Positions 1-64,000 of a stretch of DNA of 64,000 nucleotides are shown piece after piece. The position numbers and the translations under genes are program-made. The notes under the pieces were generated by a model. That model was not told where the DNA came from and made no database searches. It worked only from the letters and a program-made list of their open reading frames with translations. Position 1 is the first letter of the stretch; the number at the start of each line of letters is the position of its first letter. The stretch is from contig CAVPCQ010000040.1 in NCBI GenBank assembly GCA_963702425.1, positions 64,001 through 128,000 of the forward strand. Direction: 5' to 3'. This DNA is from an uncultured Acidobacteriota bacterium (GTDB lineage Bacteria; Acidobacteriota; Polarisedimenticolia; J045).

Positions 1-3000
1 ACTCCGACAGCGCTTGACCGCCCTCGTCGCGCAGCGTCAGGACGACCTTCCCATCGCGGCCCATCCGGAACCAGCGCTGCCCGGCGGCGTCGTAGCGGTA
101 CCATTCGCCGGGCACCCCGGCGCTCGTCCAGGGGTCGCCTTCCACGAAGGCCTGCATCCGGTTGTTGGCGTCCCAGCGGGCCCCCACGGCTTGCTGCTGC
201 TGGCCCTTGAAGCGCACCAGGTTGCCGTTGGGGTCGTACGAAAACGCCGCGTCGGTCATCCGGTTGTCGTTGTTCTCCAGCGCCTGCGGGAACGTGTGCG
301 CGAAGTCGTGTCCCGGCGGCTCGGGGACCTGCGTCGTGGACACGAGCGTCTGCGACAGCATGTTCCCGGCGAGGTCGTACACCCAGCTCAGCTGGTCCGG
401 TGTCGTGACCGCCGGAGCCTGCGCCTGCGGCAGCACCTTGGCCCCGACCAGGCGGAATGCGGCGTCGTAGGTGAATCGCTGGCTGCCGATCGCCGTGATG
501 TCGCCCCCACCGTCGAAGGCGTAGGTCCCGCTCTGCCACGGCGCGAGCGTACCGCTCGCGACCGGGGCCGACACCGTCATGCTCACGGGACGGTGAAGTA
601 CGTCGCGCGGGATCGCCAGCGACGTCCAGTTGGCCAGCCCGATCCACGTTGGCTGCCCAGCGGCGTCGTATTCGATCGGCGCGTGGCCGTCCAGGGATGA
701 TAGGAAGTCCGGGCCATGGGCGCCGGCGATTCCGATCAGCGAGCCGCGGCGCCGCTGGAACAAATACCTCCTTTCCTCGGTCGACGAGCGATACGGTGCG
801 TCCAGCGAAGCGACCTGGCCACCGGCTGACCACGCCTGGCGAAGAATGAAATCAGCCCATTCGGCATCCGAGTTCGGCGATGCATAGCCCTTCCAGTCGA
901 GGCGCTGCCGCGCGCCTGAAAGGCGGCCGTTAATTCCCTTGAAGACGAATCGACGCTCGCCGATTAGCCGGCCGCCCTCGTAAGACAGCACGCGCCCCAC
1001 GCGGCCGAGGTATGCGTTGGTACTCTCGTCGCCCCCGCTGCAAGCGTAGGTAGCCTGAAACGACGCGCCACCACATGCGTCGTGATCCCAGACTGTCTCC
1101 GACATGGGATCGAGTGGATCGCGCCCGAGAGCCACATCATCGATCGCGATGCCTTCACCGAGCTCGGAGGATTCACTGTCCCCCTTGTTGAAGGCAAACC
1201 AGAGGTAGACCGCCTGCGTCCCGGTCCACTCCGTCTCGCTGAAAGCATCTGCCAACCGGATCGAGGGGGAGCGCAGCCATTGCCCGAATGATACCTGCTC
1301 CTCATCCAGACGGAACAGGACTCGCCGATTCGGGAACTGCGGTGTGTCCGACTGCCGTGTGACCCAAACCTCGAAGGCATCGTGGTCGCCCCCCGACGGT
1401 GTCTCTCGGACGCGTCGCCAGTACGTGAACGAGAGGCTGTCGAGACGCGACACATCTGGGACCGCCAGGCGTATGACCTCCCAGCGGTTCGAAGCCGAGG
1501 AGTAGGTGCACCCCGAACCCAACCGGAGCGCGCCGGTTCCGCCCCCCGAGGGCGGCGCCGGGAGGGTCGCGCAGTTGCCGTACATCGCCTGTCCCCAGGC
1601 TGTGTCTTGGGTCGAATCGAAATCTCCGGAAGCGCTGATGACGCCCTCATCCCACGCACCGAGGGAGCCGTCGAAATGGCGGCTGTCTCCACCGATGAGG
1701 GTGGCGCCAACGGCCACGGGGGCGTCTGGCGTCCCCAGGCGCTTCCGCGTGACCGTGGGGCGTCCCGCTGCATCATTTAGCGTCTCGAAGAAGTACTCTT
1801 GAGTGAGCGTCTTTCCTTTCTCGTCCTGCCACGCCAGCAGATTGCCCCACACGTCGTACCGCGCGAACGACTCGCTCCCCTTCTCCGGGTTGAACGACTC
1901 GCGCAGCCGGCCGAGGGCGTCGTGCTCGAACGTCCGGGTCTGGCCGGCCGGCGCCCAACTGGGGTTCACCCAACTCCCGAACGGGTCGCCCGGGAGCTGG
2001 CTCACGAGCGTCACCTTCTCGAGCTTCCCTCGGGGGTCATACCGATAGACCGCGTCGGCTCCGTCCCCGACGCCATCCGGCGCCTCGGCGTCGGTGTCGA
2101 CCATCGCCAGCCGACCCAGGCCATCCCGATAAAGCCGCGTCGTGACGTATTCCGTGGCCGCTGCGGTCCCATCGCCGTTCGCGTCGACGCCGTAGACCCG
2201 CGTCTCCTCGTGCGGCCCGCAGTAGCGCTTGTCGGTCCGCGCGCCGTCCGCCAACTCGATGCGCCGCGCTCGCCCGAGCGGGTCGGGCGTGACGTCGAGC
2301 GGGTTCGCACCGCCGCCGTTCGGCACGCCGTAGAAGGTCACCGTCCCGCGCGGTCGGCTGCCGGCCCCTCCGACGAGTGGGATCCCGGTCACGCTGTAGG
2401 AGTTGTCAGCCGTTCCGTCGTTATCCCAGCTCCAGGTCGCCTTCGAGGCCGCCGTGTACTCGCTTTCCTTCATCCACTCCGAGACGAAGATCTCGCGGCC
2501 CCGGGTGTCGTAGCGCACGATCTGGACCGCCATCTCGTTGGACTGCGGCATCGCGCGCCGCCGTTTGACGACGCGGCCGAGGCCGTCGTACTCCTCGTCG
2601 CTGTATTCCTGCTGGGTGTTGCCGCCGTCGTAGGCTGTCTCGCCCCCCGGCGACCGGATGACCCGCGCCTCGCGCAGCGTCGGATAGACGATGCGGGTCG
2701 CGTGCTCGTCGGACCCGGCGGGGTCGATCGTCGTCAGGCGTCCGAGAGTGTCGAAATCGAAGAGCGTCGTGAACCCGTTCGGATCGCTGCTGGAGTCCAC
2801 CTGGCCCCCGACGTCCGCGCCGATCGACTGGCTGTCGTAGGAGAGCGGCGAGATCCGCGCCGTCACCGCCCGGCCGAGGTTCCAGGTGTAGTTGACGGTG
2901 TAGGCCGCCCGGCCTCCGCCGACCCGCAGGTCCCCGCCGCTGTAGTTCGCGGTTTCGAGGTTCCCGCGGCCGCTGTATCCCAGGTCCGAGACGAGGTCGC

Positions 3001-41837: not shown

Positions 41838-43160
41838 ATGACGGAAGCGGCCCGTTCCATCATCGTCGACATCGCGCGCTGCACCGGCTGCGTGGCCTGC
41901 TCCAAGGCCTGCCCCACCAAGGCGATCCGCGTCCGCGACAACCTGGCCCAGGTGAACCACGAGCTGTGCATCGACTGCGGCGAGTGCGCCCGCGTCTGCC
42001 CGCACGAGGCCGCCCGCTCGGTGACGACCCCGCCGTCGGACCTGGGCAAGTTCAAGGTGACGGTCGCGATCCCCTCGATCACGCTCTACGCGCAGTTCGG
42101 CAAGGACGTCCACCCGGGCCAGGTGCTCAAGGCGCTCGAGCGGATCGGCTTCGACCGGGCCTACGACCTGTCCTGGATGTGTGAGCTGGTGGCCGGCGCG
42201 ACCGACGCCTTCCTGGCCGAGAGCCGCGGCCCCTGGCCCGCGATCTCGGTCACCTGCCCCGCGATCACGCGGATCGTCCAGCTGCGCTACCCCGACCTGC
42301 TCGATCACCTGGTCCCGGTCGAGTCGGCCCGCGAGCTGGCCGCCAAGATGCTGCGCCGCAAGCTGGCCGCAGAGCTGTCGGTCGAGCCGCACGAGATCGG
42401 CCTCTTCTTCATCACCCCCTGCGTCGCGATCATGCATTCGATCCTCAGCCCGGTCGGACTCGAGCAGTCGTACTTCGACGGCGCGATCTCGATCGCCGAG
42501 CTCTACGGCCCGCTGCTGCACGCGATCAAGGAGGCCCCGGAGGACGACATCCGGACGCACGAGGTCAGCCCGCAGGGGCTGCTCTGGGCGATGTCGGGCG
42601 GCGAGATCGCCGGGCTCCGGGCCTCGAGCACGCTCACGATCCGCGGGGTCGAGGACGTCCAGCACGTCTTCGACCGGATCGAGTCCGGGACGCTCCGCAG
42701 CGTCGACTTCATCGAGGCCTACATCTGCCCCGACGGCTGCATCTCGGGCGGCCTGACGGTCGAGGGTCGCTACCGCGCCGCGCGCACCATCCAGCACCTC
42801 TCGCGCCAGCTGGCGGGCCAGCGCCCGGTCAAGGAAGAGACGCTGCGGACCCTCCTGCGCCAGAACTTCTTCGACTTCGAAAAGGAGATCGAGGCCCGCC
42901 CGGTCCGGCCGCTGGCCTCGAGCCTGCGGGAGGCGATCGCCCTGCGCCACCAGCGCGACGCGCTGCTCGAGCGGTTGCCCGGCAAGAACTGCGCGGCCTG
43001 CGGCGCTCCCGACTGCGAGACCTTCGCCGAGGACATCCTGCGCGGTGAGTCGGTCGTGGGCGACTGCGTCTTCGTCCGCATCGAGCAGCTCGAGCGGGCC
43101 GTTCGAGAGCAGCCCGCTGCTCCGCTCACCACCTTACCGCCACGCGGTAGCTCAGCTTGA
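41838..43160 (+). CDS. Sensory-type [FeFe]-hydrogenase-like Fe-S protein with degenerate H-cluster motifs
   Basis: N-terminal 2x[4Fe-4S]; L1 ISVTCP, L2 TPCVAI, L3 EAYICPDGCISGG; C-terminal LPGKNCAACG.PDC...C Fe-S domain. Confidence 0.85.
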   Translation: MTEAARSIIVDIARCTGCVACSKACPTKAIRVRDNLAQVNHELCIDCGECARVCPHEAARSVTTPPSDLGKFKVTVAIPSITLYAQFGKDVHPGQVLKALERIGFDRAYDLSWMCELVAGATDAFLAESRGPWPAISVTCPAITRIVQLRYPDLLDHLVPVESARELAAKMLRRKLAAELSVEPHEIGLFFITPCVAIMHSILSPVGLEQSYFDGAISIAELYGPLLHAIKEAPEDDIRTHEVSPQGLLWAMSGGEIAGLRASSTLTIRGVEDVQHVFDRIESGTLRSVDFIEAYICPDGCISGGLTVEGRYRAARTIQHLSRQLAGQRPVKEETLRTLLRQNFFDFEKEIEARPVRPLASSLREAIALRHQRDALLERLPGKNCAACGAPDCETFAEDILRGESVVGDCVFVRIEQLERAVREQPAAPLTTLPPRGSSA

Positions 43161-43230
43161 CCTCCTGCCCCTTCGGCACCGGCACCTCGAACTCCAGCGT
43201 GCCGGCGTCGAGCTTCTTCCCGGGGAGGCT
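43125..43230. repeat. Left copy of a 106-bp direct repeat (duplicated 3' end of the DUF4139 gene)
   Basis: Matches 46185-46290 with one mismatch (43219 C versus 46279 T). Confidence 0.97.
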
Positions 43231-43367
43231 CGACCGAACCGCTCGTATTCCCAGCATGGCGACACTCCTCCGGCGCAGATTCGACCAGTTGCAGTGACGT
43301 GCTAGACTTGCGTGGTAAGCAATCTCCCTGCGAATATTGGTCGGAAGCAAGCCGGAGTGATCAGAGG

Positions 43368-44693
43368 ATGAGCGGCGCAATGTCAGGGAAGAGTAGTGGT
43401 TCGCGCCTCCGCCAACCCCGTTTGCGTGCGGCAGCGCCATCCGAAGCGCACGACGCGATGCCCTCGCTCCGCCGCGGCTTGTCGGCCTTTGGCCTCTTCG
43501 CTGGGATTGGCGGATTCGAACTCGGGTTGCAGCGGGCGGGACACCAAGCGGTGGGTTTCTGTGACATCGACGAGGGGGCGTGCGCGGTGCTGCGCGCTCG
43601 CTTTCCTGGCGATCCCATCCATTCAGATGTACGTGAGATTCGTCGCCTACCCGCAGACGTCGAGCTCCTAACCGCGGGATTCCCCTGCCAGGACCTCAGT
43701 CAGGCGGGTCGGACCACGGGAATCACCGGCAAGCAGTCAGGCCTCGTCGAGGAGGTCTTTCGCCTGTTGGCTGAAGGCCCGGTACCGTGGCTCCTCATCG
43801 AGAACGTCTCTTTCATGCTTCACCTCCAAGCCGGCCGCGCGCTCGCATTGGTTCTCGATAGCCTCGAGAGGCTCGGATACCGCTGGGCCTATCGCGTGGT
43901 GGACTCCCGAGCGTTTGGGCTGCCTCAGCGCAGGCAACGGGTGTTCATCCTCGCGTCCCTGGTCGGTGATCCACGCGACGTGCTCCTGTCCGACGATGCC
44001 GAGGAACCATCCGGCGGTCCGGATCCGATGACCGTCGCTTGTGGGTTCTATTGGACGGAGGGGGTCCGCGGGCTGGGCTGGGCCGTCGACGCCGTGCCTA
44101 CGCTCAAGGGCGGATCCACGATCGGAATCCCGTCTCCGCCAGCGATCCTCCTCCCCGATGGCCGCATCGTGACGCCCAACATTTTGGATGCGGAGCGGTT
44201 TCAAGGATTCCCAGCGGACTGGACCCTGCCCGCCGCAGCAGCCGCTCGCTCTTCTCATCGCTGGAAACTCGTCGGTAATGCCGTCACCGTCGACGTTGCC
44301 GAGTGGATTGGCATGCGGCTTCGGTCGCCGCGTCCTTACGAGGATTCCATGGACATGCCGCTGATTGCGGCGGCACGCTGGCCTCTCGCGGCCTGGGGCG
44401 ACCGCAGCGGGCGCTTCGCTGCATCCGTCTCCATGTGGCCTCAACGCGTCTCTGGCCCAGGATTGGAGTCGTACCTAGTACACGAGCCCGCCCCACTCTC
44501 AGTGAAAGCGACCTCGGGCTTCCTGTCACGAACCCGTCGAAGCACACTTCGCTTTCCGGACGGCTTCTTGACGCGAGTCGAGAATCACCTTCGGCGAATG
44601 GTCGCGATCTCGGAGTCTCGCCCAGTGTCCAACGATGCTCTGCCTTCCGAGGCTCTTTCTCGCCGCGCAGTCTCCAATGCTCGTCGTCGATGA
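43368..44693 (+). CDS. dcm: DNA (cytosine-5)-methyltransferase
   Basis: LFAGIGG (motif I), GFPCQD (IV), ENV (VI), QRRQRVF (VIII), RFQGFP (IX), GNAV (X). Start could be 43458. Confidence 0.95.
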   Translation: MSGAMSGKSSGSRLRQPRLRAAAPSEAHDAMPSLRRGLSAFGLFAGIGGFELGLQRAGHQAVGFCDIDEGACAVLRARFPGDPIHSDVREIRRLPADVELLTAGFPCQDLSQAGRTTGITGKQSGLVEEVFRLLAEGPVPWLLIENVSFMLHLQAGRALALVLDSLERLGYRWAYRVVDSRAFGLPQRRQRVFILASLVGDPRDVLLSDDAEEPSGGPDPMTVACGFYWTEGVRGLGWAVDAVPTLKGGSTIGIPSPPAILLPDGRIVTPNILDAERFQGFPADWTLPAAAAARSSHRWKLVGNAVTVDVAEWIGMRLRSPRPYEDSMDMPLIAAARWPLAAWGDRSGRFAASVSMWPQRVSGPGLESYLVHEPAPLSVKATSGFLSRTRRSTLRFPDGFLTRVENHLRRMVAISESRPVSNDALPSEALSRRAVSNARRR

Positions 44694-45084
44694 GGTTACC
44701 TCTCGACGACTAGGCTCCGTTCGGCAGCGCGGGACGACACCGGAGCTCGTCGTCCGACGCGTGGTCTCCGAACTCGGACATCGGTATCGGGTCGAGAATC
44801 GTGACCTTCCTGGCTCACCTGATCTTGCGAATCGGTCCCGCCGTTGGGCCATCTTCGTGCACGGGTGCTTCTGGCACGCTCATGCCGGATGCCACCGCGC
44901 TACGATCCCGCGCCGCAATGCGGATTTCTGGAGCAGGAAGTTTGCCGACAATCGCTCGAGAGACGCCCGAGTGCTCGGCCGGTTGACCGAAGCGGGGTTC
45001 CGCACACTGGTCGTATGGGAGTGCGAGCTAGTTCACCCGAAAGGCGTGCGCCGCAGAGTCGAGCGCTTCCTTGGGGATCGCTGA
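44677..45084 (+). CDS. vsr: Very-short-patch repair endonuclease
   Basis: TTPE..VRR, LPGSPD, IFVHGCFWH.H, N..FW..K..N..RD, VVWEC. Confidence 0.95.
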   Translation: MLVVDEVTSRRLGSVRQRGTTPELVVRRVVSELGHRYRVENRDLPGSPDLANRSRRWAIFVHGCFWHAHAGCHRATIPRRNADFWSRKFADNRSRDARVLGRLTEAGFRTLVVWECELVHPKGVRRRVERFLGDR

Positions 45085-45096
45085 GACTCGTGAGCT

Positions 45097-45993
45097 TCAG
45101 GGGTGGTGATCCCCCTCGTCACTCTCGGACAGCTCCGAGGGGGTCGGGTCGAGCTGCGGAACCGATGTGTCGCTCTCGTCCGCCCACTCGATGTAGCGCC
45201 GGTTCCGGATTCCGTAGATCTTGACGATCTCCCAAATGACCTGATCCAAGGATGCGAGCCCTCGCCTCGCCACCTCGTGAGAGTCGGGACGCCCTCGACG
45301 CGGCGGTCGCGCGAGCACGTCAAAATACGAGACCTCCCCCCGGCGCTCGCCCTCTGGTTCATAAAGGCCGATGTACATCGCCTCGAACTTCTGGGCCGGA
45401 TCCGAGGGCTCCTGCCGTCCAGATCGCGCACGAAACGTCATGACTGCATGTGCGAAGGAGGACTTGTCGGATTCGCCGTCATCGCAAGCCGTGATGGGCA
45501 GGAAGAACAGCGCAACCAAGACCGCATACGGATGGCGCTCATGGTGGTCCATCGCTTCGGCTCGCAACTCATGGTCGTTCCGCACCATGTTCTTCGTGTA
45601 GCGGCCGAGAACAACTGTGCCACCCTTCCTCGACATGTCCCGATAGTTGAGTGTCTTGATCGAAACGAGCAATTCGAGGCCCGTATCCCGCGATCCGAAT
45701 CGGACGTCGGTCTTCTTGAGCTTGCCGTGTGCGCCGCTACTCGCCTTCGACTCCTGACCCGTACCGTCAGCGCTCGGGAGAACGCCGGGGAACTGGCCAG
45801 TCTCCCGAAGCTTGTTGGCAATGAGGAGCGCAATGCTGCTCGACAGGCGTTGGGCGTAGTTCTTCTTCTCGTCGCGATCCGCAGTTTCGATCGGCCTTGG
45901 CTCGGCATGGTCCAAAGCGCTGAGGAAGGTCTTGATGGTGCCCGGCGAACCTCTCGTCGCGCCGCCGTTTCCTGACTTGGTCCCCTTCCCCAT
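45097..45993 (-). CDS. Putative type II restriction endonuclease (PD-(D/E)XK fold)
   Basis: KKTDV...LVSIKT...KN..R..ELRAEA.D.H...P pattern; convergent with dcm-vsr within the islet. Confidence 0.7.
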   Translation of the reverse strand: MGKGTKSGNGGATRGSPGTIKTFLSALDHAEPRPIETADRDEKKNYAQRLSSSIALLIANKLRETGQFPGVLPSADGTGQESKASSGAHGKLKKTDVRFGSRDTGLELLVSIKTLNYRDMSRKGGTVVLGRYTKNMVRNDHELRAEAMDHHERHPYAVLVALFFLPITACDDGESDKSSFAHAVMTFRARSGRQEPSDPAQKFEAMYIGLYEPEGERRGEVSYFDVLARPPRRGRPDSHEVARRGLASLDQVIWEIVKIYGIRNRRYIEWADESDTSVPQLDPTPSELSESDEGDHHP

Positions 45994-46184
45994 CGCTTCT
46001 CACTCCCCGCCGCTGGACGGCGAAAGGAACCGAGTCTGGGTCCCGTCATTCGGGAATGTCAACCGGCGGCTGCGTCGTGCCGCGGTCCGTCTTCCCGCGC
46101 TCGCATGCTGCACGTGGGCGACGATCGGTCCCGGGGTAGGACCGCTCGAAATCCGTTCCATTGCTGCAAGTTCCGGCGAATCGA

Positions 46185-46290
46185 CTCACCACCTTACCGC
46201 CACGCGGTAGCTCAGCTTGACCTCCTGCCCCTTCGGCACCGGCACCTCGAACTCCAGCGTGCCGGCGTCGAGCTTCTTTCCGGGGAGGCT
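46185..46290. repeat. Right copy of the 106-bp direct repeat (3' end of the intact DUF4139 gene)
   Basis: Matches 43125-43230. Confidence 0.97.
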
Positions 46291-47631
46291 GGAGGAGACC
46301 AGCGTCCAGTCGCCGCCGACCGGCTCGCGCACGGTGACCACGACGTCCTGCTCCTTGCGGTTCCGAATCGAGATCACGTAGGCCGACTCGTTCTGCCGCG
46401 GGCTGACGGCGCGATACTCGGTCTGGGTGCGATCGGCCACGACATCGAAGGCGTCGCCGACGTGGAGCTTGATCGTCTCGTCCTTCGGCGTGTGGTCGAT
46501 CGCGTCCTCGCCGACGAACTGCTCGGCGCCCGAGCGGTCCTGCTTGTAGACGCGGACGATCCCCTTGGGCAGCGGCATCCCGAGGCCGGCCTCCTTTGCG
46601 TTCCGGATCTCCAGCACGACGGCCACCTTCTGGTCCTGCGTCAGCGTGCCGCCCTGCTGGCTGCGGTACCACCAGGGCTGGCCGACGAGCAGCAGCTTCT
46701 TGACCACCGGGATCCCGGATCCCTGGAGCAGGCTGATCTGCTTGGTCTGGTTGTCCTTGATCGTGGTCGGTCGCTCGAGCGTGTAGAGGTGATACTCGAA
46801 GAACGACTCCTCCTGGAACTGCGGCGGCGCGGCGGCCATCACGACCTCCTTGCGCATCGCGTCCTGCATCGGCATCCCCTGCGGCAGCTGGCGCCGCACG
46901 TCGCCCGCGACCAGCTTGAGCGTCGCGTCCCTGAACCCCGCGCCGGAGCGGTTGTCGATCGTCACCCAGCCGGTCAGGTCGGCGGCCTTGTCGTCGGCGT
47001 CGACGACCGCGACGTAGTCGGCGGACCAGGTCATCCCGTCGGTCAGGTACGAGGCCTCGATCTCCTGCGGTCCCGCTTTCGCCGCGTTGACCGTCCAGAC
47101 CAGCGTCGGGCGCGAGACGAGGTCGGCCGGCACTTCGGGCAGCGTCACCTTCCCGGTCTGGTTGAGCACGATTCGGTCGCCGATCCGGTAGACCGGGGCA
47201 CCGTTGACGGAGAGCAGCGTCGCGGGGACGCTGCGCGTCGTCAGGTCCTCGGCCTGCTCGACGATCTCGACCGGCTTGCCGACGTACTTCTCCAGCAGCT
47301 TCTCGGGCGAGATCAGGTCGAACTCGTAGTTCTGCTCGAGCACGGTCAGGCCGCCGGGCGCGGTGAGCGATTTCAGGTGGACGGTCCGCGGGTTGATCGC
47401 CGAGGGGACGTCCATGAACCGCAGCGTCGCTGTCCCGGTCCGGGGGGCATCGAGCGTGCGGGTCTCGCGGACCAGCGCGAGGTTGACGTTGTAGACCGTC
47501 ACCGAGACACCGGTGCGATCGGCGGCGGTGCTGTCGGGGAGGGCCGGGAGCTCGGCCGCGGCGGCGCCGAGCGCGGCGGCGAAGGCGAGCGCGACGGAAA
47601 CGGAACTCAGCAGTTGGACGACGGGACGCAT
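46186..47631 (-). CDS. DUF4139 domain secreted protein
   Basis: Signal peptide; SVTVYN.NLALVRETR, LEQNYEFDL, YLTDGMTWSADY, FEYHLY, TIKDNQTKQ, GEDAIDHTP. Confidence 0.9.
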   Translation of the reverse strand: MRPVVQLLSSVSVALAFAAALGAAAAELPALPDSTAADRTGVSVTVYNVNLALVRETRTLDAPRTGTATLRFMDVPSAINPRTVHLKSLTAPGGLTVLEQNYEFDLISPEKLLEKYVGKPVEIVEQAEDLTTRSVPATLLSVNGAPVYRIGDRIVLNQTGKVTLPEVPADLVSRPTLVWTVNAAKAGPQEIEASYLTDGMTWSADYVAVVDADDKAADLTGWVTIDNRSGAGFRDATLKLVAGDVRRQLPQGMPMQDAMRKEVVMAAAPPQFQEESFFEYHLYTLERPTTIKDNQTKQISLLQGSGIPVVKKLLLVGQPWWYRSQQGGTLTQDQKVAVVLEIRNAKEAGLGMPLPKGIVRVYKQDRSGAEQFVGEDAIDHTPKDETIKLHVGDAFDVVADRTQTEYRAVSPRQNESAYVISIRNRKEQDVVVTVREPVGGDWTLVSSSLPGKKLDAGTLEFEVPVPKGQEVKLSYRVAVRW

Positions 47632-49441: not shown

Positions 49442-52141
49442 TCACTTCGAAGGCGGGCCCTCGAGCACGTCGAGCGCCAGCATCTCGCCATTCCTGTTGA
49501 AGACGACCGACTGCGCCTCCTCAGGCATCTTGAATTTGAAGGGCGTGACCTCCCCCTCGACGACGATCGGGACCGCCGCCTCGCGGCCGCCCCGGAACGT
49601 CACCGTGAGCGGCACCTTGCCGCGGAAGAAGACGCCGTCCACGGCGTGCTTCTTCAGCCCGACGACGGTGCGCTGGTGGATCGTCCCTTCGATCAACCAC
49701 TTCCCGTCCTCGGTCGCCCGCTGCTTCCACTCGACCCGGTACTCGGGGAGGCCGATCCCGCGGACCCACTGGTCGAAGAACCAGTCCATCCGGCCGCCGT
49801 AGACCTTCTCGGCCACCTTCTGCAGCTCGCGCGTCGTGACTTCCTTGCCGGCGAGCTGCTGCGCCATCTCGCGCAGGTAGAGCTTCATCTTCTCGTCGCC
49901 GAACGTCATGCGCAGGACGTGGAAGGCGTACGGGCCCTTGTTGTAGACCGCCGTCTGGTAGCCGCGCCAGCCGTCTCCGCTCCAGAGCGTGCTCGCGTCC
50001 TGGACACTGCTCATCAAGTCGGTCTCGAGCACGGCGCGGCGCCAGGACTCGACGTGGTCATCGTAGACCTTCCTGCCGTACTTGGCCTCCATGAACAGTG
50101 CCGACGAGAATTCGGCGAGGCTCTCGATGAACCAGTAGCTGCGGTCGTTGGCGTTGGCGATCAGCGAGCCCCACCACTGGTGCGCCACCTCGTGCGGCAC
50201 GACCGATTTGACGAAATAGGTGATGCCGGCGCCGCCCATCGTGCCGAGCGTCCCCTCGCCGCGGAAGACGCCGCTGCCGAGGTAGACGATCGAGCTGGGC
50301 GCCTGGCCGTAGAACGAGCCGAACGGGTCGTTGACGAGATCGAGCTTGGAATAGGGGTAGTCGACGCCGTAGACGTCGCGGTAGAAGTTGAGCGACTCCG
50401 CGGCCTGGTCCGCGAGGGGCTGGAGCTGCTTGGGGCGGATCTCCCAGTCGGTGATCGAGTTCTTGTCGACGAAGATCCGGACCGGGATCTTCGTCCCGTC
50501 CAGCCGGGTGGCCTGGACCGACGACTCCGCCTGCTCGTAGATCCCGAAGATGACGGTCGGGAACTCGACCGGGGCCTGGGCCCGGTAACGCGTGATCGAA
50601 ACCCCGTCCTCGACCTTCGACTCGACCGCCCGGCAGATGCCGAGCGTCGTGTACTTCGCCGGGACCTTCACCGTGAGGTCGAAGTCCGGGATCATGTCGC
50701 CGAAGCGGACGAGCGGCAGCCACCCGCCGCGCGCCACGTACGAGAACGACCAGTTGTAGTTGTAGATCGAGCGCTTGGCGTCGAACTGGATCCGCAGCGT
50801 CAGGTCCGACCCCGCCGGCACCTTGCGACCGAGCAGCACGAGGCCCGACATCGGCCCGGTCTTGGCCCAGGTCAGCTCGCGCCCGTCGCCGTCCTGCAGG
50901 GAGTTGATGATCAGGGTCGGGCTCTTCAGGTCCTTCGCTTCGGTCTGGGCGCGCAGCCGGACGATGAAGACCGGCAGCCGCTCGATCTCGCGCTTGATCT
51001 TCAGCCGGTAGGTGAGGTCTCCCGACGTGTCCTGGGGGTCGACGAGGGCCAGCTCGACCGTCCCGGAGAGCCCTTCGATCTGGAAGTCGCGGGAGGCGGC
51101 GTCGTCCCGGCGTTCGAGGTCCCACGGGGTGACGCCGGCGGCACGCGTCGCCTCGCTCGGGTAGGCGTAGAGAACGCCGCGCCCGACGACGCCGAAGCTC
51201 ACCTCGAGCGGGTCCCACTCGTCGTAGCCGAGCCAGGCCCAGTGCTCGCCCGTCGAACGCCGCACGGACGCGGTCCAGTAGCGGTGCCCCGGCTCCGGCA
51301 GCACCCGGAAGAAGGAGAAGGGGTCCTCGCGCAGCCGCTGGTCGCGCTCGCGGCGGGCCTCGTCGAGGAACTTCGTCAGGGTGGCGGACGCAGCGTCCTT
51401 CTCGATCGGCCGCGAACCCGTGAACGCCGCGTCGAGGATCTCCTTGCAGGAGGCGGGATCGCACCCGATCCGGACCATGGTCGGAGTGAAGACGATGTCG
51501 TCCTCGTGGATCGTCTTGACGATCTCGTGGACGCGCGGGAAGGGGCCCCATCCGGCAGGCGGCTCGTAGGCGTACTCGATCGCCTCGGCCGCGATCGTGA
51601 TCGAGGACAGCTCGCCGTGCAGGAGGTCCTTGTAGGCGGTCCCCTTCGCAGCTCTCAGGCGCATCCCCTCGCGCTCGAAGACGAACATGTCGAACGCGAA
51701 GTAGACCTCGTCCCCGATGTCGCCGCGATGCAGGCCGGTCCAGCTGTCGTCAACCTTCTCGGCGGTCACCTTGAAGCCGTCGCCGCCGGGCGCGGGCCCC
51801 AGGGTGAGGAGCAGCCGCTCGGTGCGCAGCGAGTTCCCCTCGATCGTATCGCGGTGGTAGGTCACCTGAAACGTCCCGTCACCGACCGGCCGGAACGAAC
51901 GCGAATGGGTGCCGCGCTTGCTCGGCTTCTCGTCCGCGTTCTGGACCTTGACGAGCTGCTCGGTGTAGGCCTGCACCGCCTTCTCGAGCCGCTGCTGCGT
52001 CTCCTTCGGGATCGCGGCCGGCGCGGCGGTCTCAGCCGCGAGGGCCGCCCCGAGAGCGGCCACCCCGAGCATGAGAGCGCACGCCGCGACGCACCAGCGG
52101 GCCAGATCGGGCAAACGGCGCGTGGGACGGACGATGCTCAT
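49442..52141 (-). CDS. Secreted M1 family zinc aminopeptidase
   Basis: PHEVAHQWWG...WFIESLAEF (HEXXH-X18-E), YNKG, FFDQWV; signal peptide. Confidence 0.9.
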   Translation of the reverse strand: MSIVRPTRRLPDLARWCVAACALMLGVAALGAALAAETAAPAAIPKETQQRLEKAVQAYTEQLVKVQNADEKPSKRGTHSRSFRPVGDGTFQVTYHRDTIEGNSLRTERLLLTLGPAPGGDGFKVTAEKVDDSWTGLHRGDIGDEVYFAFDMFVFEREGMRLRAAKGTAYKDLLHGELSSITIAAEAIEYAYEPPAGWGPFPRVHEIVKTIHEDDIVFTPTMVRIGCDPASCKEILDAAFTGSRPIEKDAASATLTKFLDEARRERDQRLREDPFSFFRVLPEPGHRYWTASVRRSTGEHWAWLGYDEWDPLEVSFGVVGRGVLYAYPSEATRAAGVTPWDLERRDDAASRDFQIEGLSGTVELALVDPQDTSGDLTYRLKIKREIERLPVFIVRLRAQTEAKDLKSPTLIINSLQDGDGRELTWAKTGPMSGLVLLGRKVPAGSDLTLRIQFDAKRSIYNYNWSFSYVARGGWLPLVRFGDMIPDFDLTVKVPAKYTTLGICRAVESKVEDGVSITRYRAQAPVEFPTVIFGIYEQAESSVQATRLDGTKIPVRIFVDKNSITDWEIRPKQLQPLADQAAESLNFYRDVYGVDYPYSKLDLVNDPFGSFYGQAPSSIVYLGSGVFRGEGTLGTMGGAGITYFVKSVVPHEVAHQWWGSLIANANDRSYWFIESLAEFSSALFMEAKYGRKVYDDHVESWRRAVLETDLMSSVQDASTLWSGDGWRGYQTAVYNKGPYAFHVLRMTFGDEKMKLYLREMAQQLAGKEVTTRELQKVAEKVYGGRMDWFFDQWVRGIGLPEYRVEWKQRATEDGKWLIEGTIHQRTVVGLKKHAVDGVFFRGKVPLTVTFRGGREAAVPIVVEGEVTPFKFKMPEEAQSVVFNRNGEMLALDVLEGPPSK

Positions 52142-52327
52142 CGCGGGACCTCCCCACGGGAAGCCGCAGGCTCGACCCGGCACCGGCCGCGGTGCGATCC
52201 GCGAGCTCCCCGGCTTGTTCGTTGCCATTCTACGCCCGGGACTATGGGGCGCTGTCAGGGGCGACGGCAAGGCCGCGGCGACTGGCCGGCACCGCCGCTC
52301 GGGGACGGCGTCAAGAAGGTCGACAGG

Positions 52328-56425: not shown

Positions 56426-59400
56426 CTACCGCAGGATCCCTCCGTTGGCGACGTTGTTCGACTCGTTGGTCTCCGCGACCGAGTCCGCGGGGTCGACGAC
56501 TCCCAGCAGGTAGAGGCCGGCCGCGGTGTACCCCGTGGGGACCTTGAAGTTCAGCTTGAATGCCTTCTTCGCCCGCGGCTTGAGCGCGCTGACGGAGAAG
56601 CTGCTGATCCGGATGTCGTCGCCCGAGGGCGCGCTGTCGACCGACACCAGGGCCCATGCCTGGGTCGAACTCGAGTTCACCGTACCGTTGTTCACGACGG
56701 TGAACTTGCCGGTGATCGTGCAGCGCGTGACCCCCTTCTTGGTCTTGCAGACCTGCCTGGCACCGCGCCACGAGCCGACGAGGTCCGGCCCGGACGTCAG
56801 GCGGATCTCGACTGGGAGCGTCGCCGACCAGCCCGATTCGACGGCTGTGTTCGTCGCCGAGCGGGCCTTGGTGCGCACGCCGTAGGAGCCGCGCGCTCCC
56901 CAGGCGTGCGACGCGCCCGTCGTGCCGACGGGCAGCCAGCCCGAGTTCGTGCCGTCGATCCAATCGAAGAAGTACTGCACCGGGTTCCCCTGGCTGGACG
57001 CGGCGCCGCCCGTCGTGTACGCGAGGGACTGCCCCGGCGCACCGGTGAGAGGCCCAGCGAGCGACGTCGGCGCGGAGACCGTCTCCACCGCCGCCGAGAT
57101 CGTGACGTTCAGTGTCCCCGACCAGTCGGAGACGACGGTCTGAGTCACCGCGCAGCGCGCGCGCACCCTGACCGGATAGCCGCCGGCCGCCGCCCAAGCG
57201 TGCTGCGTCACGACGTCGCCGGCGCCGCCGCCGGAGAGCGCGGCCGCAGCCTGGTCGACACGGATCCGCGGGCGGGTCAGGCCGTTCCGCCCGTCGGTGA
57301 TCGACACGCCCGTGCTCGTGAACGCTGCCAGGACCTCGTCGACCGTCGCGGTGGGTTTCTTCGACTTGAGGACGGCCCACGCCCCGGCGACGTGCGGCGT
57401 CGCCATGGACGTGCCGTCCTTGACGCCGAACCCGCCGCCGGTGACCGACGAGTTGATGTCCGATCCCGGCGCGAGCAACTCGAGCATCGACGCCGAGTTC
57501 GAGAAGCTGGAGACGCCGTCGAATTTCGTCGTCGAGCCGACCGCCACCGCGCTCGAGATGCAGGCCGGGTGGCTGATCGAATCCGTGTAGTAGTTGTTGC
57601 CCGTCGCGATCGCCGTCGCGATGCCGGCCGCGCGCAGATTGTCGATCGCCTGCTTCATCGCCGGGCTCTCGCCGTCGCAGTAGGTGTAGAAGCGCTCGCT
57701 GCCCAGGCTCAAGTTGACGGAAGCGATGGCGAACGCATTCCGCTGGCCGTAGACCCACTCCAGGCCGGCGATGTCGTCGCTGGGGTAGCTGCCCGTTCCG
57801 CCGCCGTTCAGGAGCGAGAAGACCTGGACGGCGATGATCGAAGCCTCCCTGGCGACGCCGGAGAAGGTCGTCCCCTTTCCGGCGGCGATCCCCGCGCAGT
57901 GGGTCCCATGGTCGCACGTCGGATCACTGCACGGCGTCGCGGCCCCGACGCCGATCTGCGTCGCCTGGCCGTTGGGGCAGGCGCTGGTCGTCCCCTGGGC
58001 GGTCGTCGAGAAGCAGGCTTCGGCGACGACCTTGCCGGCCAGGAACGGGTGGTTCCGCTCGACCCCCGTGTCGAGGATGGCGACGGCCTGGCCCGCGCCG
58101 GTGGCACCCGCGGCCCACGCGGCCGGCGCCCCGATCAGCGGCACGCTCTGCTCGAGCGTCATCTCGTGCAGCCGGTCCTCTTCGATCCGCGCGACCTCGG
58201 GGCTGCCGGCCAGCCGTTCCAGCGCGCGCGCGTCGGCCTCGAGCGCCAGCGCCGCCACGAACCGGTAGCGCCGGTGGACCGCGAACGTCTCGCCGGCCAG
58301 GCGCGCGAGCAGCGCCTCCTGCGCCTGCGCGATCCGGTCCTGCTGGGCCAGCGCGGAGGCCGGCGCCATCAGCCCCTCGGGCGCGAACGGCTCGCGGAGC
58401 GTGACGATCACGCGCACGCGCCCCTTCTGGCGCACGATTGGCACGAGCCGCTCGAGATCGGCGCGCGGGTTGCCCGCGGTCTCGACCGGCATGGCCGATC
58501 CGGGCGCGGCCGCGGATGCGAGCAGCCCGTCCGCTCCCGCCAGTCCCGCCGGCGTGATCCAGGTCGACATCGTGCCGTCGCCCCAGTCGAACTGGTACTG
58601 CGACGCCTCGCCCAGGCTGCAGGTGGCGCCACCCGAGCGGTACTCGTAGGCCGTCGCCGGGACGCCGGCGGCCGGGCCGGCCGGCGCACGCGGCGTGGTG
58701 ATCGTGCCGCCCCCGCCGCCGGTGATCGTGACCGTGAGCGATCCCGAGTCGCCGGAGACCTTGGCGGTGTCGGACGCGCAGCGCGCGCGGGCCTTGACCG
58801 GATAGGACCCGTTGTTCGTCCAGGCGTGGCTGGCGGTCACGGTGTTGCCGCCGCCCCCGCCGGTGATCGTGAAGGTCTGCGCGGCGGATGTCCCGCCGCC
58901 CGGCGCCGGCGTGAAGACCGTGACCTGCGCGGTCCCGGCCGTCGCGACGTCGGCCGCGGCGATGATCGCCGTCAGCTGCACGGCGCTGACGAAGCTGGTC
59001 GGCTGGTCGGCGCCGTTCCAGCGCACGACCGAGCCGTTGATGAAGCCGCTGCCGTTCGCTGTGAGGGTGAAGCCCAGCGAGCCGGCCGGTGCGCTCGACG
59101 GCGCGATCCCGGTCAGCACCGGCACCGGATTGCCGCCGCCGCCGCCCGAGGCGAGAACCGCTGCGCGGGCGTCGATTCGACCGGTCCCGGTCTTGTCGTC
59201 CTCACCCGGCGCCCCGATGTCGTCAGCCGTCTGGCGCAGGATCGACTTCACCTCGGCGGGGGTCAGGCTCGGGTTCTTCGAGAGCATCAGCGCGACGATG
59301 CCCGCGGCCTTGGGCGTGGAGGACGAGGTTCCGCCGAACTGGTACTCGTAGTTCGGGTCGACCCCGGTGGCGGCCTGGTCCTGGTTGTAGCCTGCGCTGC

Positions 59401-62400
59401 CGAGCCGATCGGTGGTGTAGCTCCACGGACCCGGCGCGACGACGTCCGGGCCGGCACCGATGTAGCTCGAGCCCCAGGTCGTCAGCCCATCGGACGACGA
59501 GGCGCTCTTGTGCTCGTCGGTCGGGCTCGAGGCGCCGACGCAGATGACCGCCATCTGCGCGGTCAGGTTGCAGGGGAATGCGGTCTCGTAGGACCACGGC
59601 GGCCGGTCCGGTCCGTTGCCGGCGGCGATGACGACCGAGCGGCCGGCGGCGAGCGCGTTCTGAAAGGCGGTCGTGATCGCGTTGCTCGGCGCATCGACCC
59701 AGCCCCAGGAGTTCGAAAGCACTGAGGCCCCGTGGGAGACCGCGATGCTGATCCCGTTGGCCATGCCGGCCTCGCTGCCCGCATGGTTGACCGGCATGAT
59801 CTTCACGCCCGGCGCGGTCCCCGCGACGCCGATCCCGTTGTCGCGGATCGCACCGACGTTGCCCGCACACGCGGTGCCGTGGTTGGAGTTCGCGTCGCGT
59901 GGCGCACCTCCGACCGCCCCGGTATCGCCGTCGTAGCCGGTGACCAGGTTCAGGTCGGGATGCCCCGGCTCCACGCCGTCGTCGATCACCGCGACGACGA
60001 CGCCCGGCGAGACGGTGACCTCGTTCCAGGCTTCGACGACGTTGAGATCGTTGTCGTCGTTCCCGAGCCCGGCGATCTGCCCGACGTTCTTCAGCTCGTA
60101 CTGCCGGCCGCCGTAGGGATCGTTCCCGATCGACTCGGTGTCGACGTTGGGGGTGCCGACGATCCGAAGCTCATCGATGTAGAGCCCTTCGTCGCTGACG
60201 CCGGCGTCGCTGATGAACTCGAACACGATCCGGAAGGCCGTCGTGTGGAACGCGGGCGGCACGCGCAGCAGCATCCGCCGCCAGCCATTGATCGCCGTGC
60301 GATCATCCGCAAGCTTGCCGGTGAACGGCACCGCGAGGAGTTGGGCGACCTGGGAAGCCTGGGTATTGGCGTCGAAGAACCAGACCTTGCCGTAGTCGTA
60401 GAGCGTGACCTGCCCGCTGCCCGGGTCGAGGTATGGGTTCTCGAACCTCGCCCAGAACCAGAACTCGACGTAGGCCTCCTCGAACGCGGCGAGATTGACG
60501 ATCGGCGAGTAGGCAAAGACGTCCACGTTGCCCGGGTAGGGTCCGGGCGGCGGGATGCCCTGCGCTCCGTTGCCGGTCATGTAGATCGACTGCGCGCTGG
60601 TGCGCACCCGCGCGTTCGTGTACACCGGTCCGGCTTCGGTCGTCATGTCGGCGTTGTAGACCTCCCACCCGGTGACCGCGGTGTCGAAGTTGTCGAAGAG
60701 CACGGTCGACCAGGTCGGGGCTGTCATCGGGTGGGCCGGCGGGACCCGCGGCGACGGGTCGGCGGCAGCCTCCGGCACGAGCGGCCGGAGCGGCGCAGTG
60801 AGCACCGGGAGCCGTCCCTCGGCGGGGCGTAGGGACTGCGGACCGTCGGGCTCGAAGACCAGCACGTGATTCGGCTCGGCGAACAGGACCTCCGGCAGGC
60901 GCGCCAGGGCGCGCGACACGGCGTAGGCCCGACCGCCCGCCGCGGAAGCAATCCGCACCATGAAGAGATCGCCGAAGAGCGCCCGCGTGTCGACCAGGCC
61001 CAGGCTCGCCGCATGCCGCTCGACGAAGCGCTGCGCGGCGTCGGGCGGCGTCGGGGAGCGGAAGCCGACGATCACCTCGTCGGAGGCGATCTTCGTCGCC
61101 CCGCCGAGCTCGAAGACCGGCTGCGCCGGCAAACCGTCGGCCAAGGCCCGCTCGAGCGCCGTCGGGCCGGCGGCCTGCGGCGCAGCGGCCCCCTTGCCCG
61201 CGCCCATCGACGGCGCGCGGAACAGGGCCAGGCCGCGGCTGGCAAGCGCGTCGCGCTCGCTGCGCGGATCGTGCGACCAGGACTCCCGCTCCACGACCGT
61301 GCCGCGCAGCGCAGCGGCTGCACCCGGACCCTCGTCGACGGCGACGAGGTACGGGCTGGGCTCCAGCACGACGAGCCGCCCCTGGTAATAGTAAGAGAAC
61401 GGCGGCTCGCTCCCGACCGTCACCGACTCGATCGGCGCGCCGCTCGTCGGCGAGACCGGACCGGCCCCTTCGAGCCCTGTCGCACCGGCTGCAGACGACG
61501 CCCCGGAAAGAGCGCCTGCTGCGACCGCGGCCCCCTCGTCCGGCCCGCCGGGCGCAAGCGTCGGCGTCAACCAGCCCGAGGTCGTCCCGTCACCCCAGTC
61601 GAACTGGTACTCGACCCCGCCCCCGCTGGCGCAGATCGATCCGCCCGTCGTGTAGTTGTAGCTCGTGCCGACGGTCCCCGCCGCCTGTCCCGTGGGCGTC
61701 GTCGGCGCGGTCACGTCGTCAGTCCCGCCGCCGTCGCCGAGGACGATGCGGTAGATGCTGCGACCGTGTGTCGCCGCCGCGAGCCGGCGCGTTCCATCCG
61801 GGTGGCGCGTCAGGTCGAGGTCGTAGATCGCGAGCAGCGGCATCCCCTCGTTGAACGGCTCCCAGCTCGCGCCGTCGTTCAGCGTCCGGTAGACGCCCAG
61901 GTCGGTCCCGACGTAGAGCACGCCCGTCTCGTCGCGATCGACCGCCAGCGCGGTCACCGGCAGGTCGGGTAGGCCGCCCGCCAGGCCGGTGCGGGAGATG
62001 TCGGTCCAGTTCGTCCCACCGTTGGTCGTCCTGAAGACGTGGCCGGTCGCTCCCGGGGTATTGGCCCCGAATCCGGAGAAGGCGGCGTAGTAGATCGACG
62101 AGTCGTAGGCGAAGACGTCGGAGACGAAGCGGTTCGGCAGCGTCGCCCCGGTCAGGTCGGTCCAGCTTCCGCCGCCGTTCCGCGTGACCTGGACCTTCCC
62201 GTCCCCCGTTCCGACCACGATCGTGTTCGAGTCGCCGCGCCGCACCGAGACCGCGGAAATCGCGGAGAAGCGCGATGAGGCCCGCGTCAGGTCGGTCGAG
62301 ATGGCGGTGAAGGAGTCGCCCCGGTTGTCGCTGCGATAGAGCCGCGAGGTCGCCCAGTAGACCCGTCCGACGACGTTCGGGTCGACGACCAGCGGCGCGT

Positions 62401-64000
62401 AGAAGAGAACGTTGTCGTTGAGGTCGACACCCGAGCTGTCGCCGATCTTGCCCGGCCACTCGGCGACCGCGGCGGAGCCGTTGTTGTCGTTGCGCTGGAA
62501 CTGCATCGGCCCGCCTTTGAGCGAGTAGCGCGTGCCGTACCAGGTGCGCGTGTCGAACGGGTCGATCGCCGAAAAGCCGCCGTCGCCGGCGTCGAGCCCG
62601 ACCCAGGTCGCCCCGCCGTCGGTGGTCTTGGCCTTCGCGTTGTCCTGCATCCCCCCGAACAGGACGTTCGGGTCGGTCGGGTGCTGGGTGATCGACTGGA
62701 ACTGCAGCGTGGAGAGGTTGCCGTTCCGGTCGGCCCAGCTCGCGCCGCCGTCGGTCGAGCGGTAGATCCCGCCGTCGTTGGCGATCCAGATCGTGGTCGG
62801 GTTCTGCGGGTCGAAGGCGATGCTGTGCAGATCAGGGTGCGAGGTCCTGTCGAGCGCGAGGCCGTCGTGCGTCGTGAAGGTCGTTCCGGCGTCGCGGGTG
62901 ATGAAGATCGTCCCGTCCCAGCCGTTGCTGTACATCGCGGCGCCGCCCGCCGCGAGGACGTTGGCGTCGGTCGGGTGCACGGCGAGCACGTTGTCGTAGC
63001 TGCACTGCTGGCCGCAGTAGCTGACCTCCTGGAAGTATCCCTGCGGGATCAGGGTCAGCGGGTCCCAGAACTGTCCGCCGGTACTGCTGCGGAACAGTAC
63101 CCCCGAGACCCCCTGCACGCCCTCCGGGCGGATCGTCTGGATGCCCGCCCAGACCCGCTGCGGGTCGCTCGGGCTGACGAGCACCTCAACCCGGCCCGCG
63201 TCGCCGAGCCACGGGAACCACTTCCCCTGCGCCGCCGCTGCCGGCCCGAGGATGGCGTCCCACGTGCTTCCACCGTTGGTCGTCTTGAAGACCCCGAGGC
63301 CGTCGAACCCGGCGTAGATCACGCTCGGATTGTTCTTCTCCATCGAGATCGCGGAGACGTTGGCGCAGACGCGCGGGTTGGCGCCGTCGCAGATCTTGAC
63401 CGCCTGCGGCCAGGTCGCGCCGCCGTCGGTCGAGCGGTAGATTCCCGGCTCCGCCAGCCCCGGCTTGACGTCGACCAGTCCGCCCACGCGCGTCGAGACG
63501 CCGACCCAGAGCTGCTGCGGGTTCTGCGGGTCGACGACGACCGCGGAGATCGCCCGCCCCGAGAAGACGTCGGCCCCCAGGACGGTCCAGCTCCCGCCGC
63601 CGTTCGTGGTCTTCAGGAGGCCGGCGCCGTAGTGGCTGTCGCTGCCGTGCGGCTCGCCGGTCCCGACGTAGAGGATGTCCGGGTCCGTGGGATCGAATGC
63701 CATGAACCCGGTCGCCTGCGACGGCGCAGTCGCGGTCAGCGGCGTCCAGCTCGTGCCGCCGTCGGTCGTCTTCCAGACCCCGCCCTGCGCGGCCCCGGCA
63801 TAGACGACGTTCGAGTTCCGCGGGTCGACCAGCACGGCCGTGGCCCGCCCGCTGCAGTTCCTACGCATCCACTCCTGGCCATGGTTCTCGCCGATGATCG
63901 GCGACGGCCCGACGGGCGACCAGGTCGGGAGCGCGGCGACCGCGCTGGGTGCCATCAGCGCGCGCTGCGCGGCGAAGTGGGCTCTCGCCGTCTCGACTGC
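56426..64000 (-). CDS. Giant secreted protein (over 2500 aa, 5' end outside the window): BNR/Vps10 beta-propeller, two S8 subtilase modules, jelly-roll, IPT/TIG, 3 PKD-like domains, CARDB
   Basis: Many (S/T)xDGGxTW BNR repeats. Triad 1: [20 protein letters not shown]. Triad 2: [22 protein letters not shown](G/I)DG PKD motifs; C-terminal [15 protein letters not shown]. The frame stays open to 64000. Confidence 0.93.

Follow-up and report, generated by a model that had tools for sequence, protein, structure and literature searches.

The window analysed here, a 64,000-nt stretch of contig CAVPCQ010000040.1 from an uncultured Acidobacteriota bacterium, carries on its minus strand a gene for a large protein in which two subtilase (S8) zymogen modules are each nested in a split PKD domain. 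From the N-terminus, the protein consists of a lipobox, a Vps10/BNR propeller, module 1 between the two PKD halves N1 and C1, module 2 between N2 and C2, an intact PKD domain and a CARDB domain. The PKD motifs thus follow one another in the order N1...C1 N2...C2 N3C3. The nesting is confirmed by profile searches, and for module 2 it is also supported by structure prediction. Each split PKD domain probably acts as a clasp, which would keep the protein together after the proteases have cleaved off their own prodomains.

An earlier note, made by a model from the letters of the DNA, had described three homologous PKD-like units in this protein, the third of them intact. We searched the genome with a profile (A3) of 35 intact units of the same PKD subfamily from other organisms and phyla, with E-values calculated per genome. 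A3 covers all three units, and the motifs lie where they had been claimed. Intact unit 3 matches profile positions 3-97 (E 3.1e-33), N1 matches positions 6-57 (E 1.4e-16) and N2 positions 7-57 (E 1.3e-15), while both C1 (E 2.0e-9) and C2 (E 6.7e-10) match positions 56-97. Because these coverages adjoin, the halves are exactly complementary and units 1 and 2 are broken at one profile position (57/56), in agreement with the claim of a common loop. The break site is a loop that leads from the FDWGDGxxSxW strand to the HxW strand and has 6-11 residues in intact units. The segments between the halves measure 913 amino acids (aa) in unit 1 (prodomain, beta jelly-roll-like domain, S8 and an IPT/TIG-like domain, CoaZ) and 452 aa in unit 2 (prodomain and S8), against the estimates of about 900 and 445 aa, and have the contents that had been assigned to them.

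The subfamily consists of true PKD domains. Unit 3 is matched by Pfam PKD_4 at residues 2295-2370 (E 5.2e-7; 30.1 bits against a cut-off of 27), where residue numbers, here and below, are those of the 2509-aa translation P0001, which is counted from an internal ATG and is shorter than the full protein of ~2,607 residues. Among the 35 intact members, 31 match PKD_4 (PF18911) and 20 match PKD (PF00801). The A3 profile in turn matches the PKD domains of the collagenase ColH (E 3.2e-13) and the solved archaeal PKD domain 4xed (E 2.3e-10). Host and insert also occur separately. The host is continuous in the 145 intact PKD units that we found. The insert is autonomous, module 1 being free-standing in P0332 and P0333, and the module 2 type standing alone in most of the 324 pro-S8 modules described below.

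The halves of unit 2 are predicted to rebuild one PKD beta-sandwich. The AlphaFold2 (AF2) model of unit 2 (P0002, 547 aa, 60-row alignment) has a mean predicted local distance difference test (pLDDT) score of 88.7, with 84-94 in the N-half, 77-95 in the C-half and less than 50 in the linker at 56-77. When this model was aligned by VIA-align with 48,161 PDB representatives, 96 of the 97 residues of the PKD domain 4xed_A were superposed on the model range 1..541 (Z 10.8, root-mean-square deviation 2.6 A, 32% identity), and 92 of the 94 residues of 9kvu_A on the same range (Z 8.2); 44 entries of the S8 clan (S8, S53) ranked above 4xed_A. As a whole solved PKD domain superposes across both halves, N2 and C2 together form one PKD fold in the model. 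Foldseek against the PDB gave only subtilisins among the matches listed, the PKD match coming from the wide VIA-align search alone. In a two-chain prediction, N2 (1-56) and C2 (496-547) reached an interaction prediction score from aligned errors (ipSAE) of 0.85 (runs 0.86, 0.85 and 0.85) versus 0.00 for the best of three controls, with 175-186 contacts, agreement between runs in at least 89% of contacts and a partner pLDDT of at least 85. The strand pairings are interdigitated (39-45/513-520, 21-25/505-506 and 15-18/537-539). The mark for this prediction is reached by 58 of 80 solved complexes and by 2 of 110 mismatched pairs, a calibration that is only rough with a custom alignment, and the pass may partly reflect memory or likeness, since PKD folds have already been solved. 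The model of unit 1 (P0003, 1012 aa, alignment of only 14 rows) is poor, with a mean pLDDT of 63.5 and a predicted template modelling score of 0.49. We infer from the sequence of N1 and C1 and from their co-occurrence that these halves also fold together. The claim that the halves form one sandwich thus stands for unit 2 by prediction.

Both inserts are probably complete subtilase zymogens. Peptidase_S8 (PF00082) matches the whole protein with E 2.6e-79 in two stretches, the best at residues 1318-1592. The Asp-His-Ser triad in subtilase order and the oxyanion Asn are intact in both S8 domains, within the motifs AVIDDG (1322), HGTACAG (1359), NSWG (1415) and GTSSSTP (1542) of module 1 and AILDTG (1959), HGTHCAG (2016), NLSLG (2081) and GTSMATP (2181) of module 2. 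In the AF2 model, the S8 domain of module 2 aligns with 9ues_B over 287 residues (VIA-align Z 41.9, root-mean-square deviation 2.0), and the best Foldseek match of unit 2 is the unautoprocessed pro-subtilisin E 3whi (E 5.8e-24). For module 1, the prodomain gives only a weak Fervidolysin_NPro-like match at 956-1029 (E 0.0028; 18.4 bits, below the 21-bit cut-off), and the homologous segment lies directly after the signal peptide in P0125, P0331, P0332 and P0333. The beta domain of module 1 has no Pfam match; its low-confidence AF2 model (P0003 342-528) is made up entirely of strands, and the domain is conserved in the same four proteins and in a paralogue on contig C23 of this genome. The CoaZ repeat is matched by NF058597 (E 3.1e-31; 107.3 bits against a cut-off of 30).

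Subtilases are zymogens that cut the bond between their own N-terminal prodomain and the catalytic domain, and on this general ground we assume that both modules autoprocess. If the protein were linear, all that lies N-terminal of such a cut would be set free: the first cut would release the lipid anchor and the propeller, and the second the entire first protease. Each pro-subtilase module is a domain insertion in the PKD loop between the FDWGDGxxSxW and HxW strands, and we propose that the two PKD halves fold together into one beta-sandwich. The fragments should then stay together because the strands before the prodomain interdigitate with those after the catalytic domain, and the mature protein would consist of three associated chains. 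In units 1 and 2, extra fastening could come from a disulfide linking two Cys residues, one in the B-C loop of the N-half and one where strand F of the C-half ends. The earlier note had pictured each PKD domain as a disulfide-locked clasp displaying a protease as a loop insert; the loop insert and the two halves of one PKD domain are borne out, and the disulfide is only partly supported.

The split form is conserved among relatives. The closest genomes, which are metagenome-assembled genomes of Acidobacteriota, are 79-84% identical over unit 2, and the full orthologue in locus L002 retains both split units. Three proteins of ~800 aa (P0011, P0034 and P0119) are 44-46% identical to unit 2 and consist of a signal peptide, N-half, prodomain, S8, C-half, intact PKD and CARDB. 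P0239 and P0240, which are 34-35% identical to P0011, have the same nested form, and P0126 is nested with a pro-S8-CoaZ insert. Together with P0125, P0331 and the L002 orthologue, these independent proteins show that the split form persists at identities as low as 34-46%. Both PKD halves are under conservation. In P0125 and P0331, the second module is wrapped, but module 1, which comes immediately after the signal peptide, lacks both N1 and C1; the free-standing module 1 homologues P0332 and P0333 likewise lack the halves. N1 and C1 thus occur as a pair or not at all, and only where a propeller lies upstream.

Half-only A3 matches among the 12 or fewer candidates scored in each genome occurred, in 401 Acidobacteriota genomes, only in this genome and in one of the same genus, and full-length unit 1 was found in these two only. 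Within 23 genome-contig loci, split units were limited to close relatives. The earlier note had also suggested a search for homologues with different cargo; no cargo other than S8 was seen at the PKD loop among these 401 genomes and 23 loci with the queries used, which is no proof of its absence. In a FastTree phylogeny of 145 PKD units (93 columns), unit 1, unit 2 and the P0125 unit are mutual nearest neighbours, and support is low: the node joining all split units has a support of 0.33 and spans 130 of the 145 tips. This tree cannot separate one origin of the split units from several.

Two further loci have related architectures. The same-genus genome G313 (locus L025; P0336) carries an orthologue of the same architecture, which is broken by a TGA and several frame changes in an assembly of five contigs. 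Contig C23 carries, at ~43008-47342 (plus strand, locus L030), a paralogue with a signal peptide, beta domain, S8-like domain, CoaZ, PKD N-half (with its Cys), prodomain, S8, C-half, PKD and CARDB. The first S8-like domain of this paralogue has lost all three catalytic residues and is unwrapped and without a prodomain. Its C-half (ARARC) and the next N-half lie in another frame than their flanks, so that two frameshifts must be assumed, whether through an error of the assembly or because the gene is decaying.

The arrangement recurs with other hosts. The proteins returned by our searches contain 324 pro-S8 modules, 46 of which have more than 150 aa upstream. An automated test asked whether the upstream and downstream flanks of a module match adjacent positions of one continuous stretch in another protein. 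It was positive for 15 of the 46 internal modules (14 true cases, P0173 being an artefact) and for 5 of the 146 modules with 41-150 aa upstream. When the tests were combined with a motif reading of the flanks, 37 of the 46 were classed as nested in a split beta-sandwich, the hosts being Flg_new_2 (22), HYDIN/BACON_2-like domains (8), PKD (5) and Kre9_KNH (2); these numbers show recurrence across host folds and are not a tally of independent events. Nesting is strongly associated with the presence of protein upstream of the pro-S8 module in this sample, and such enrichment is what retention of upstream protein predicts.

The split is visible in the matches of other host families as well. From the only intact Flg_new_2-like unit of P0077 we built a hidden Markov model (HMM), which finds 16 proteins; its N-part (~2-27, end at 25-32) lies before the prodomain and its C-part (~28-75, start at 24-29) right after S8. 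Pfam catches only the distal part of the host after S8, for example BACON_2 39-86 of 94, HYDIN-like Ig 47-91 of 100, Flg_new_2 18-70 of 73 and Kre9_KNH 41-79 of 94. In P0006 and P0008, a BACON-like domain is split around the pro-S8 module with a junction gap of 0 relative to the intact copy in P0150, the first ~29 residues preceding the prodomain and themselves being preceded by nothing but a signal peptide. This domain is whole and downstream of S8 in P0127, P0136, P0139, P0150, P0234 and P0329. A group of ~1300-aa proteins (the P0242-P0320 group, P0129, P0161, P0215 and P0226), several of them source-labelled Acidobacteriota, consists of a signal peptide, a CARDB-like domain and a Flg_new_2 (InlB B-repeat-like) domain split at PNCxxG/xxYxxGT by a full pro-S8 module. 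In P0056, a pro-S8 module stands between an FTP/PepSY propeptide region and an M4 catalytic domain, an order that is polyprotein-like and not nested.

It is tempting to generalize these observations. Nesting of the pro-subtilase in a beta-sandwich loop may, as a tentative idea, be a general design rule of bacterial multidomain S8 proteases whose zymogen is not N-terminal, by which autocleavage would yield a clasped multi-chain machine. In the present protein, this would be a three-chain, two-protease, lipid-anchored assembly with two PKD clasps, in each of which a disulfide would replace an ancestral Ca2+ site.

The Cys pair bears on the last point. As the earlier note had described, the translation has one Cys in each half of both split units and Ser at both columns of intact unit 3. 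We counted these residues with half-HMMs on all collected proteins and loci, pairing each N-half with the next C-half. Both Cys were present in 15 of the 17 split rows (4 of which duplicate the two units of this gene) versus 14 of the 145 intact units; 99 intact units have only the C-half Cys, 32 have neither and none has the N-half Cys alone. The row of the C23 paralogue was mispaired, and its true C-half, in the other frame, does carry the Cys. In the alignment of A3 with ColH, the Cys column of the N-half coincides with the first of the two Asp residues in DPDG and that of the C-half with the Asp of VTD. These Asp residues coordinate the same Ca2+ at ~2.4 A each in the ColH PKD domains (Asp713/Asp754 in s2a, Asp802/Asp844 in s2b), as stated in PMC4356367. 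The two Cys are expected to be neighbours because their columns are those of Asp residues sharing one Ca2+, and a bonded pair fits, since the N-half Cys never occurs alone in intact units. In the two-chain prediction, the N2-C2 interface list includes Cys32 as well as the segment with Cys521. A disulfide that replaced the Ca2+ site is thus plausible from the sequence comparison. As for the covariation of the pair with the insert, which had been suggested as a check, nearly all split units carry the pair, with P0126 as an exception, and so do some intact units; the lock itself is favoured by the Ca2+ columns and weakened by those intact units.

The same columns are of interest in intact units elsewhere. 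The 99 units with a lone ARARC Cys, at the homologue of a Ca2+-binding Asp of collagenase PKD domains, include those of P0124, P0131 and L005-L023; P0124, of 5395 aa, has 104 half-domain HMM matches, i.e. ~50 such PKD units. In this genome, contig C38 (~60020-60295, plus strand) encodes an intact PKD of the same subfamily with both Cys, one of the 14 counted above, followed by a CARDB-like tail, at the end of an 892-codon open reading frame (ORF) with Kelch-like and Cys-rich repeats.

Several observations weigh against the proposed clasp or its generality. Seven nested proteins (P0011, P0034, P0119, P0239, P0240, P0006 and P0008) carry no more than a signal peptide upstream, so retention of upstream cargo is not the whole reason for nesting. 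Among the 46 internal modules, 7 lack nesting, 6 of them coming after another S8 domain and the seventh lying between an M4 propeptide and its catalytic domain, and 2, in CarboxypepD_reg, are only possibly nested. The count of 37 nested modules is partly visual and motif-based, and many of the Flg_new_2 cases are close relatives rather than independent events. In the poor model of unit 1, N1 has a pLDDT of 25-57 and C1 of 24-55. As for the disulfide, P0126 has a split unit with Ser instead of Cys in the N-half, the pair is shared by 14 intact units and is therefore not confined to split ones, and in the flanks of the other host families, which were read visually and not counted, no similar Cys pair between the halves was seen.

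The arrangement could alternatively be a neutral domain insertion, in which protease cassettes are tolerated in a permissive surface loop of PKD, a passive scaffold, and nesting has no function. Domain insertion occurs in 20% of multidomain proteins according to the abstract of PMC13114784, loop length varies among intact units, some units of P0124 having extra residues there, and the tree of PKD units leaves independent origins unseparated. A purely neutral insertion is nevertheless hard to square with the conservation of both halves and of the exact break point to ~35% identity, with the recurrence of the arrangement in unrelated host folds and different loops, and with the strong association of nesting with upstream protein; the joint gain or loss of N1 and C1 also speaks against it. 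We regard this explanation as unlikely.

A second alternative concerns the prodomain rather than the upstream protein. Nesting would tie the cleaved inhibitory prodomain to the N-half by a linker of 26-50 residues, and the enzyme would stay latent until the linker or the prodomain is destroyed. The nested topology necessarily tethers the prodomain, the linker between N-half and prodomain is long and predicted to be disordered (pLDDT below 50 at P0002 56-77 and P0003 57-93), and the seven nested proteins with a signal peptide alone upstream fit this idea. It leaves unexplained why nesting is commoner with upstream protein, both in the automated test (14 of 46 versus 5 of 146) and in the classification (37 of 46), and why module 1 is unwrapped exactly in those relatives where it is N-terminal. 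We therefore consider it quite unlikely as the main explanation. The two ideas are not mutually exclusive, and the tether may matter for latency in a clasped protein. That the halves do not pair at all, being decayed remnants or, for C1 and the adjacent N2, which are only a GGGGG linker apart, a circularly permuted domain, is highly improbable: although the unit 1 model gives no confident fold for N1 or C1, relatives start with an N-half right after the signal peptide and no C-half before it, both halves are under conservation, and for unit 2 the idea is contradicted by the confident joint fold of N2 and C2 and its superposition on a whole solved PKD domain.

Retention by the clasp can be compared with known systems. 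Combinations of S8 and PKD (Subt-PKD-PKD and similar) were catalogued only as linear orders in a 2008 survey, and the words inserted, nested, insertion and discontinuous are absent from its text (PMC2605481). The present protein resembles these linear subtilase-PKD proteins in combining S8 with PKD, CARDB and other beta-sandwich accessory domains, but PKD is here the host and the whole zymogen the insert. The solved PKD domains of 4xed (an M14-like peptidase of Thermoplasmatales) and ColH (s2a and s2b) have the same fold and the motifs YxxEWGDG...W...HxW...GxYxVxAKAxD; unlike the split units, they are continuous and have Asp at both Cys columns, the Ca2+ ligands in ColH. In the literature searched, supplementary files excepted, we came across no report of an S8 zymogen inserted into PKD or another immunoglobulin-like domain.

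Partial parallels exist outside the S8-PKD combination. In plant SBT3 and streptococcal C5a peptidase, a small PA domain is inserted in an S8 host. These proteins also have a nested S8 architecture, but its polarity is reversed and the PA insert is irrelevant to chain continuity after prodomain cleavage; 3i6s and 7bj3 are among the S8 structures matched by the unit 2 model in VIA-align. In function, the closest analogues are complement C3, GAIN and SEA domains and the insulin receptor. In the complement C3/alpha2-macroglobulin family, both chains contribute to the MG6 domain, which surrounds the processing site, and CUB has TED nested in it. Like the proposed clasp, these proteins have an interrupted beta-sandwich with an insert containing the processing site, and their chains are held by the shared sandwich and a disulfide; unlike the present protein, they belong to an unrelated fold family of eukaryotic humoral proteins and are cut by a furin-type protease rather than by the insert itself. 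In GAIN and SEA autoproteolysis and in the insulin-receptor FnIII-2 domain with its insert, cut chains also stay joined via shared beta structure, in the insulin receptor with a disulfide as well. In contrast to our case, where the cut would lie in an inserted zymogen hundreds of residues long, GAIN and SEA are cut inside the domain itself, and there is no homology.

One would naturally assume that anything upstream of a subtilase prodomain is lost on processing. If the proposal is right, a clasp would explain how bacteria build N-terminally anchored or multi-enzyme subtilase proteins, annotators would have reason to seek half domains flanking S8 modules, which are visible in Pfam as partial matches only, and the arrangement would offer a natural scaffold by which a carrier could display self-processing enzymes. 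The Cys pair at the former Ca2+ site would be a small case of a metal site swapped for a disulfide.

The gene extends beyond the window. The minus-strand ORF 56426..63955, counted from an internal ATG, encodes 2509 aa and runs open through the window end; on the contig (C40) the same frame has 2654 codons from stop to stop. The likely start, MSKRL...LLSAC (MSKRLVVASCLAMLLSAC/AVTR), lies ~249 nt beyond the window and would give the protein of ~2,607 residues. Bacterial lipoboxes have the motif [LVI][ASTVI][GAS]C, and a lipoprotein-type signal with a lipobox was recognized by eye at MSKRLVVASCLAMLLSAC/AVTR. The lipobox is kept in three orthologues, e.g. as ...LCLAC/AVTR in L002 and ...LFLAC/AVTR in P0336. 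The gene product is predicted to be a surface or periplasmic protein that is lipid-anchored at its N-terminus. In the following N-terminal part, Sortilin-Vps10 (PF15902) matches in three stretches (E 3.6e-26; 92.4 bits against a cut-off of 33) and PSII_BNR with E 1.4e-6, the Pfam propeller matches covering residues 22-700. The features are listed in the table.

Table. Features of the nested protease gene in window coordinates; residue numbers (aa) are those of P0001.
Feature	Window position	Strand	Basis
N-terminal part, predicted lipoprotein signal and Sortilin-Vps10/BNR beta-propeller (aa 1-740)	61736..64000	-	Pfam
N1, PKD unit 1 N-half (aa 745-795; FDWGDG at aa 785; Cys775 at 61631-61633)	61571..61723	-	half-HMM, profile A3
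Low-complexity linker from N1 to prodomain 1 (aa 796-849)	61409..61570	-	sequence; pLDDT <50 at P0003 57-93
Putative prodomain of module 1 (aa ~850-1035)	60851..61408	-	weak Pfam match and homologous N-terminal prodomains
All-beta jelly-roll-like domain of module 1 (aa ~1083-1269)	60149..60709	-	AF2 strands, conservation
S8 catalytic domain 1 (aa ~1306-1603; D1325, H1359, S1544)	59147..60040	-	Pfam, motifs
CoaZ repeat / IPT-TIG-like domain (aa 1610-1697)	58865..59128	-	NCBIfam NF058597
C1, PKD unit 1 C-half (aa 1708-1745; Cys1726 at 58778-58780)	58721..58834	-	half-HMM, profile A3
N2, PKD unit 2 N-half (aa 1751-1799; Cys1779 at 58619-58621)	58559..58705	-	profile A3, AF2, interface with C2
Predicted disordered linker from N2 to prodomain 2 (aa 1800-1829)	58469..58558	-	pLDDT <50 at P0002 56-77
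Subtilisin-type prodomain 2 (aa ~1830-1926)	58178..58468	-	AF2 alpha/beta at P0002 83-179, Foldseek
S8 catalytic domain 2 (aa ~1934-2240; D1962, H2016, S2183)	57236..58156	-	Pfam, VIA-align, motifs
C2, PKD unit 2 C-half (aa 2251-2287; Cys2268 at 57152-57154)	57095..57205	-	profile A3, AF2, 4xed
Intact PKD unit 3 (aa 2288-2384), Ser at both Cys columns	56804..57094	-	PKD_4, profile A3
C-terminal CARDB domain (aa 2409-2503)	56447..56731	-	Pfam CARDB, E 2.5e-9
Stop codon	56426-56428	-	sequence

The neighbouring genes, which encode rubrerythrin, a TrkA_N protein, a fatty-acid desaturase, an M1 peptidase and glutamine synthetase, suggest no functional or operon link to the nested protease gene. A 942-aa ORF with an M1 peptidase domain (window 49442-52270, minus strand) is overlapped by a longer ORF of 1016 aa without a Pfam match on the opposite strand, a shadow-ORF ambiguity typical of high-GC DNA.

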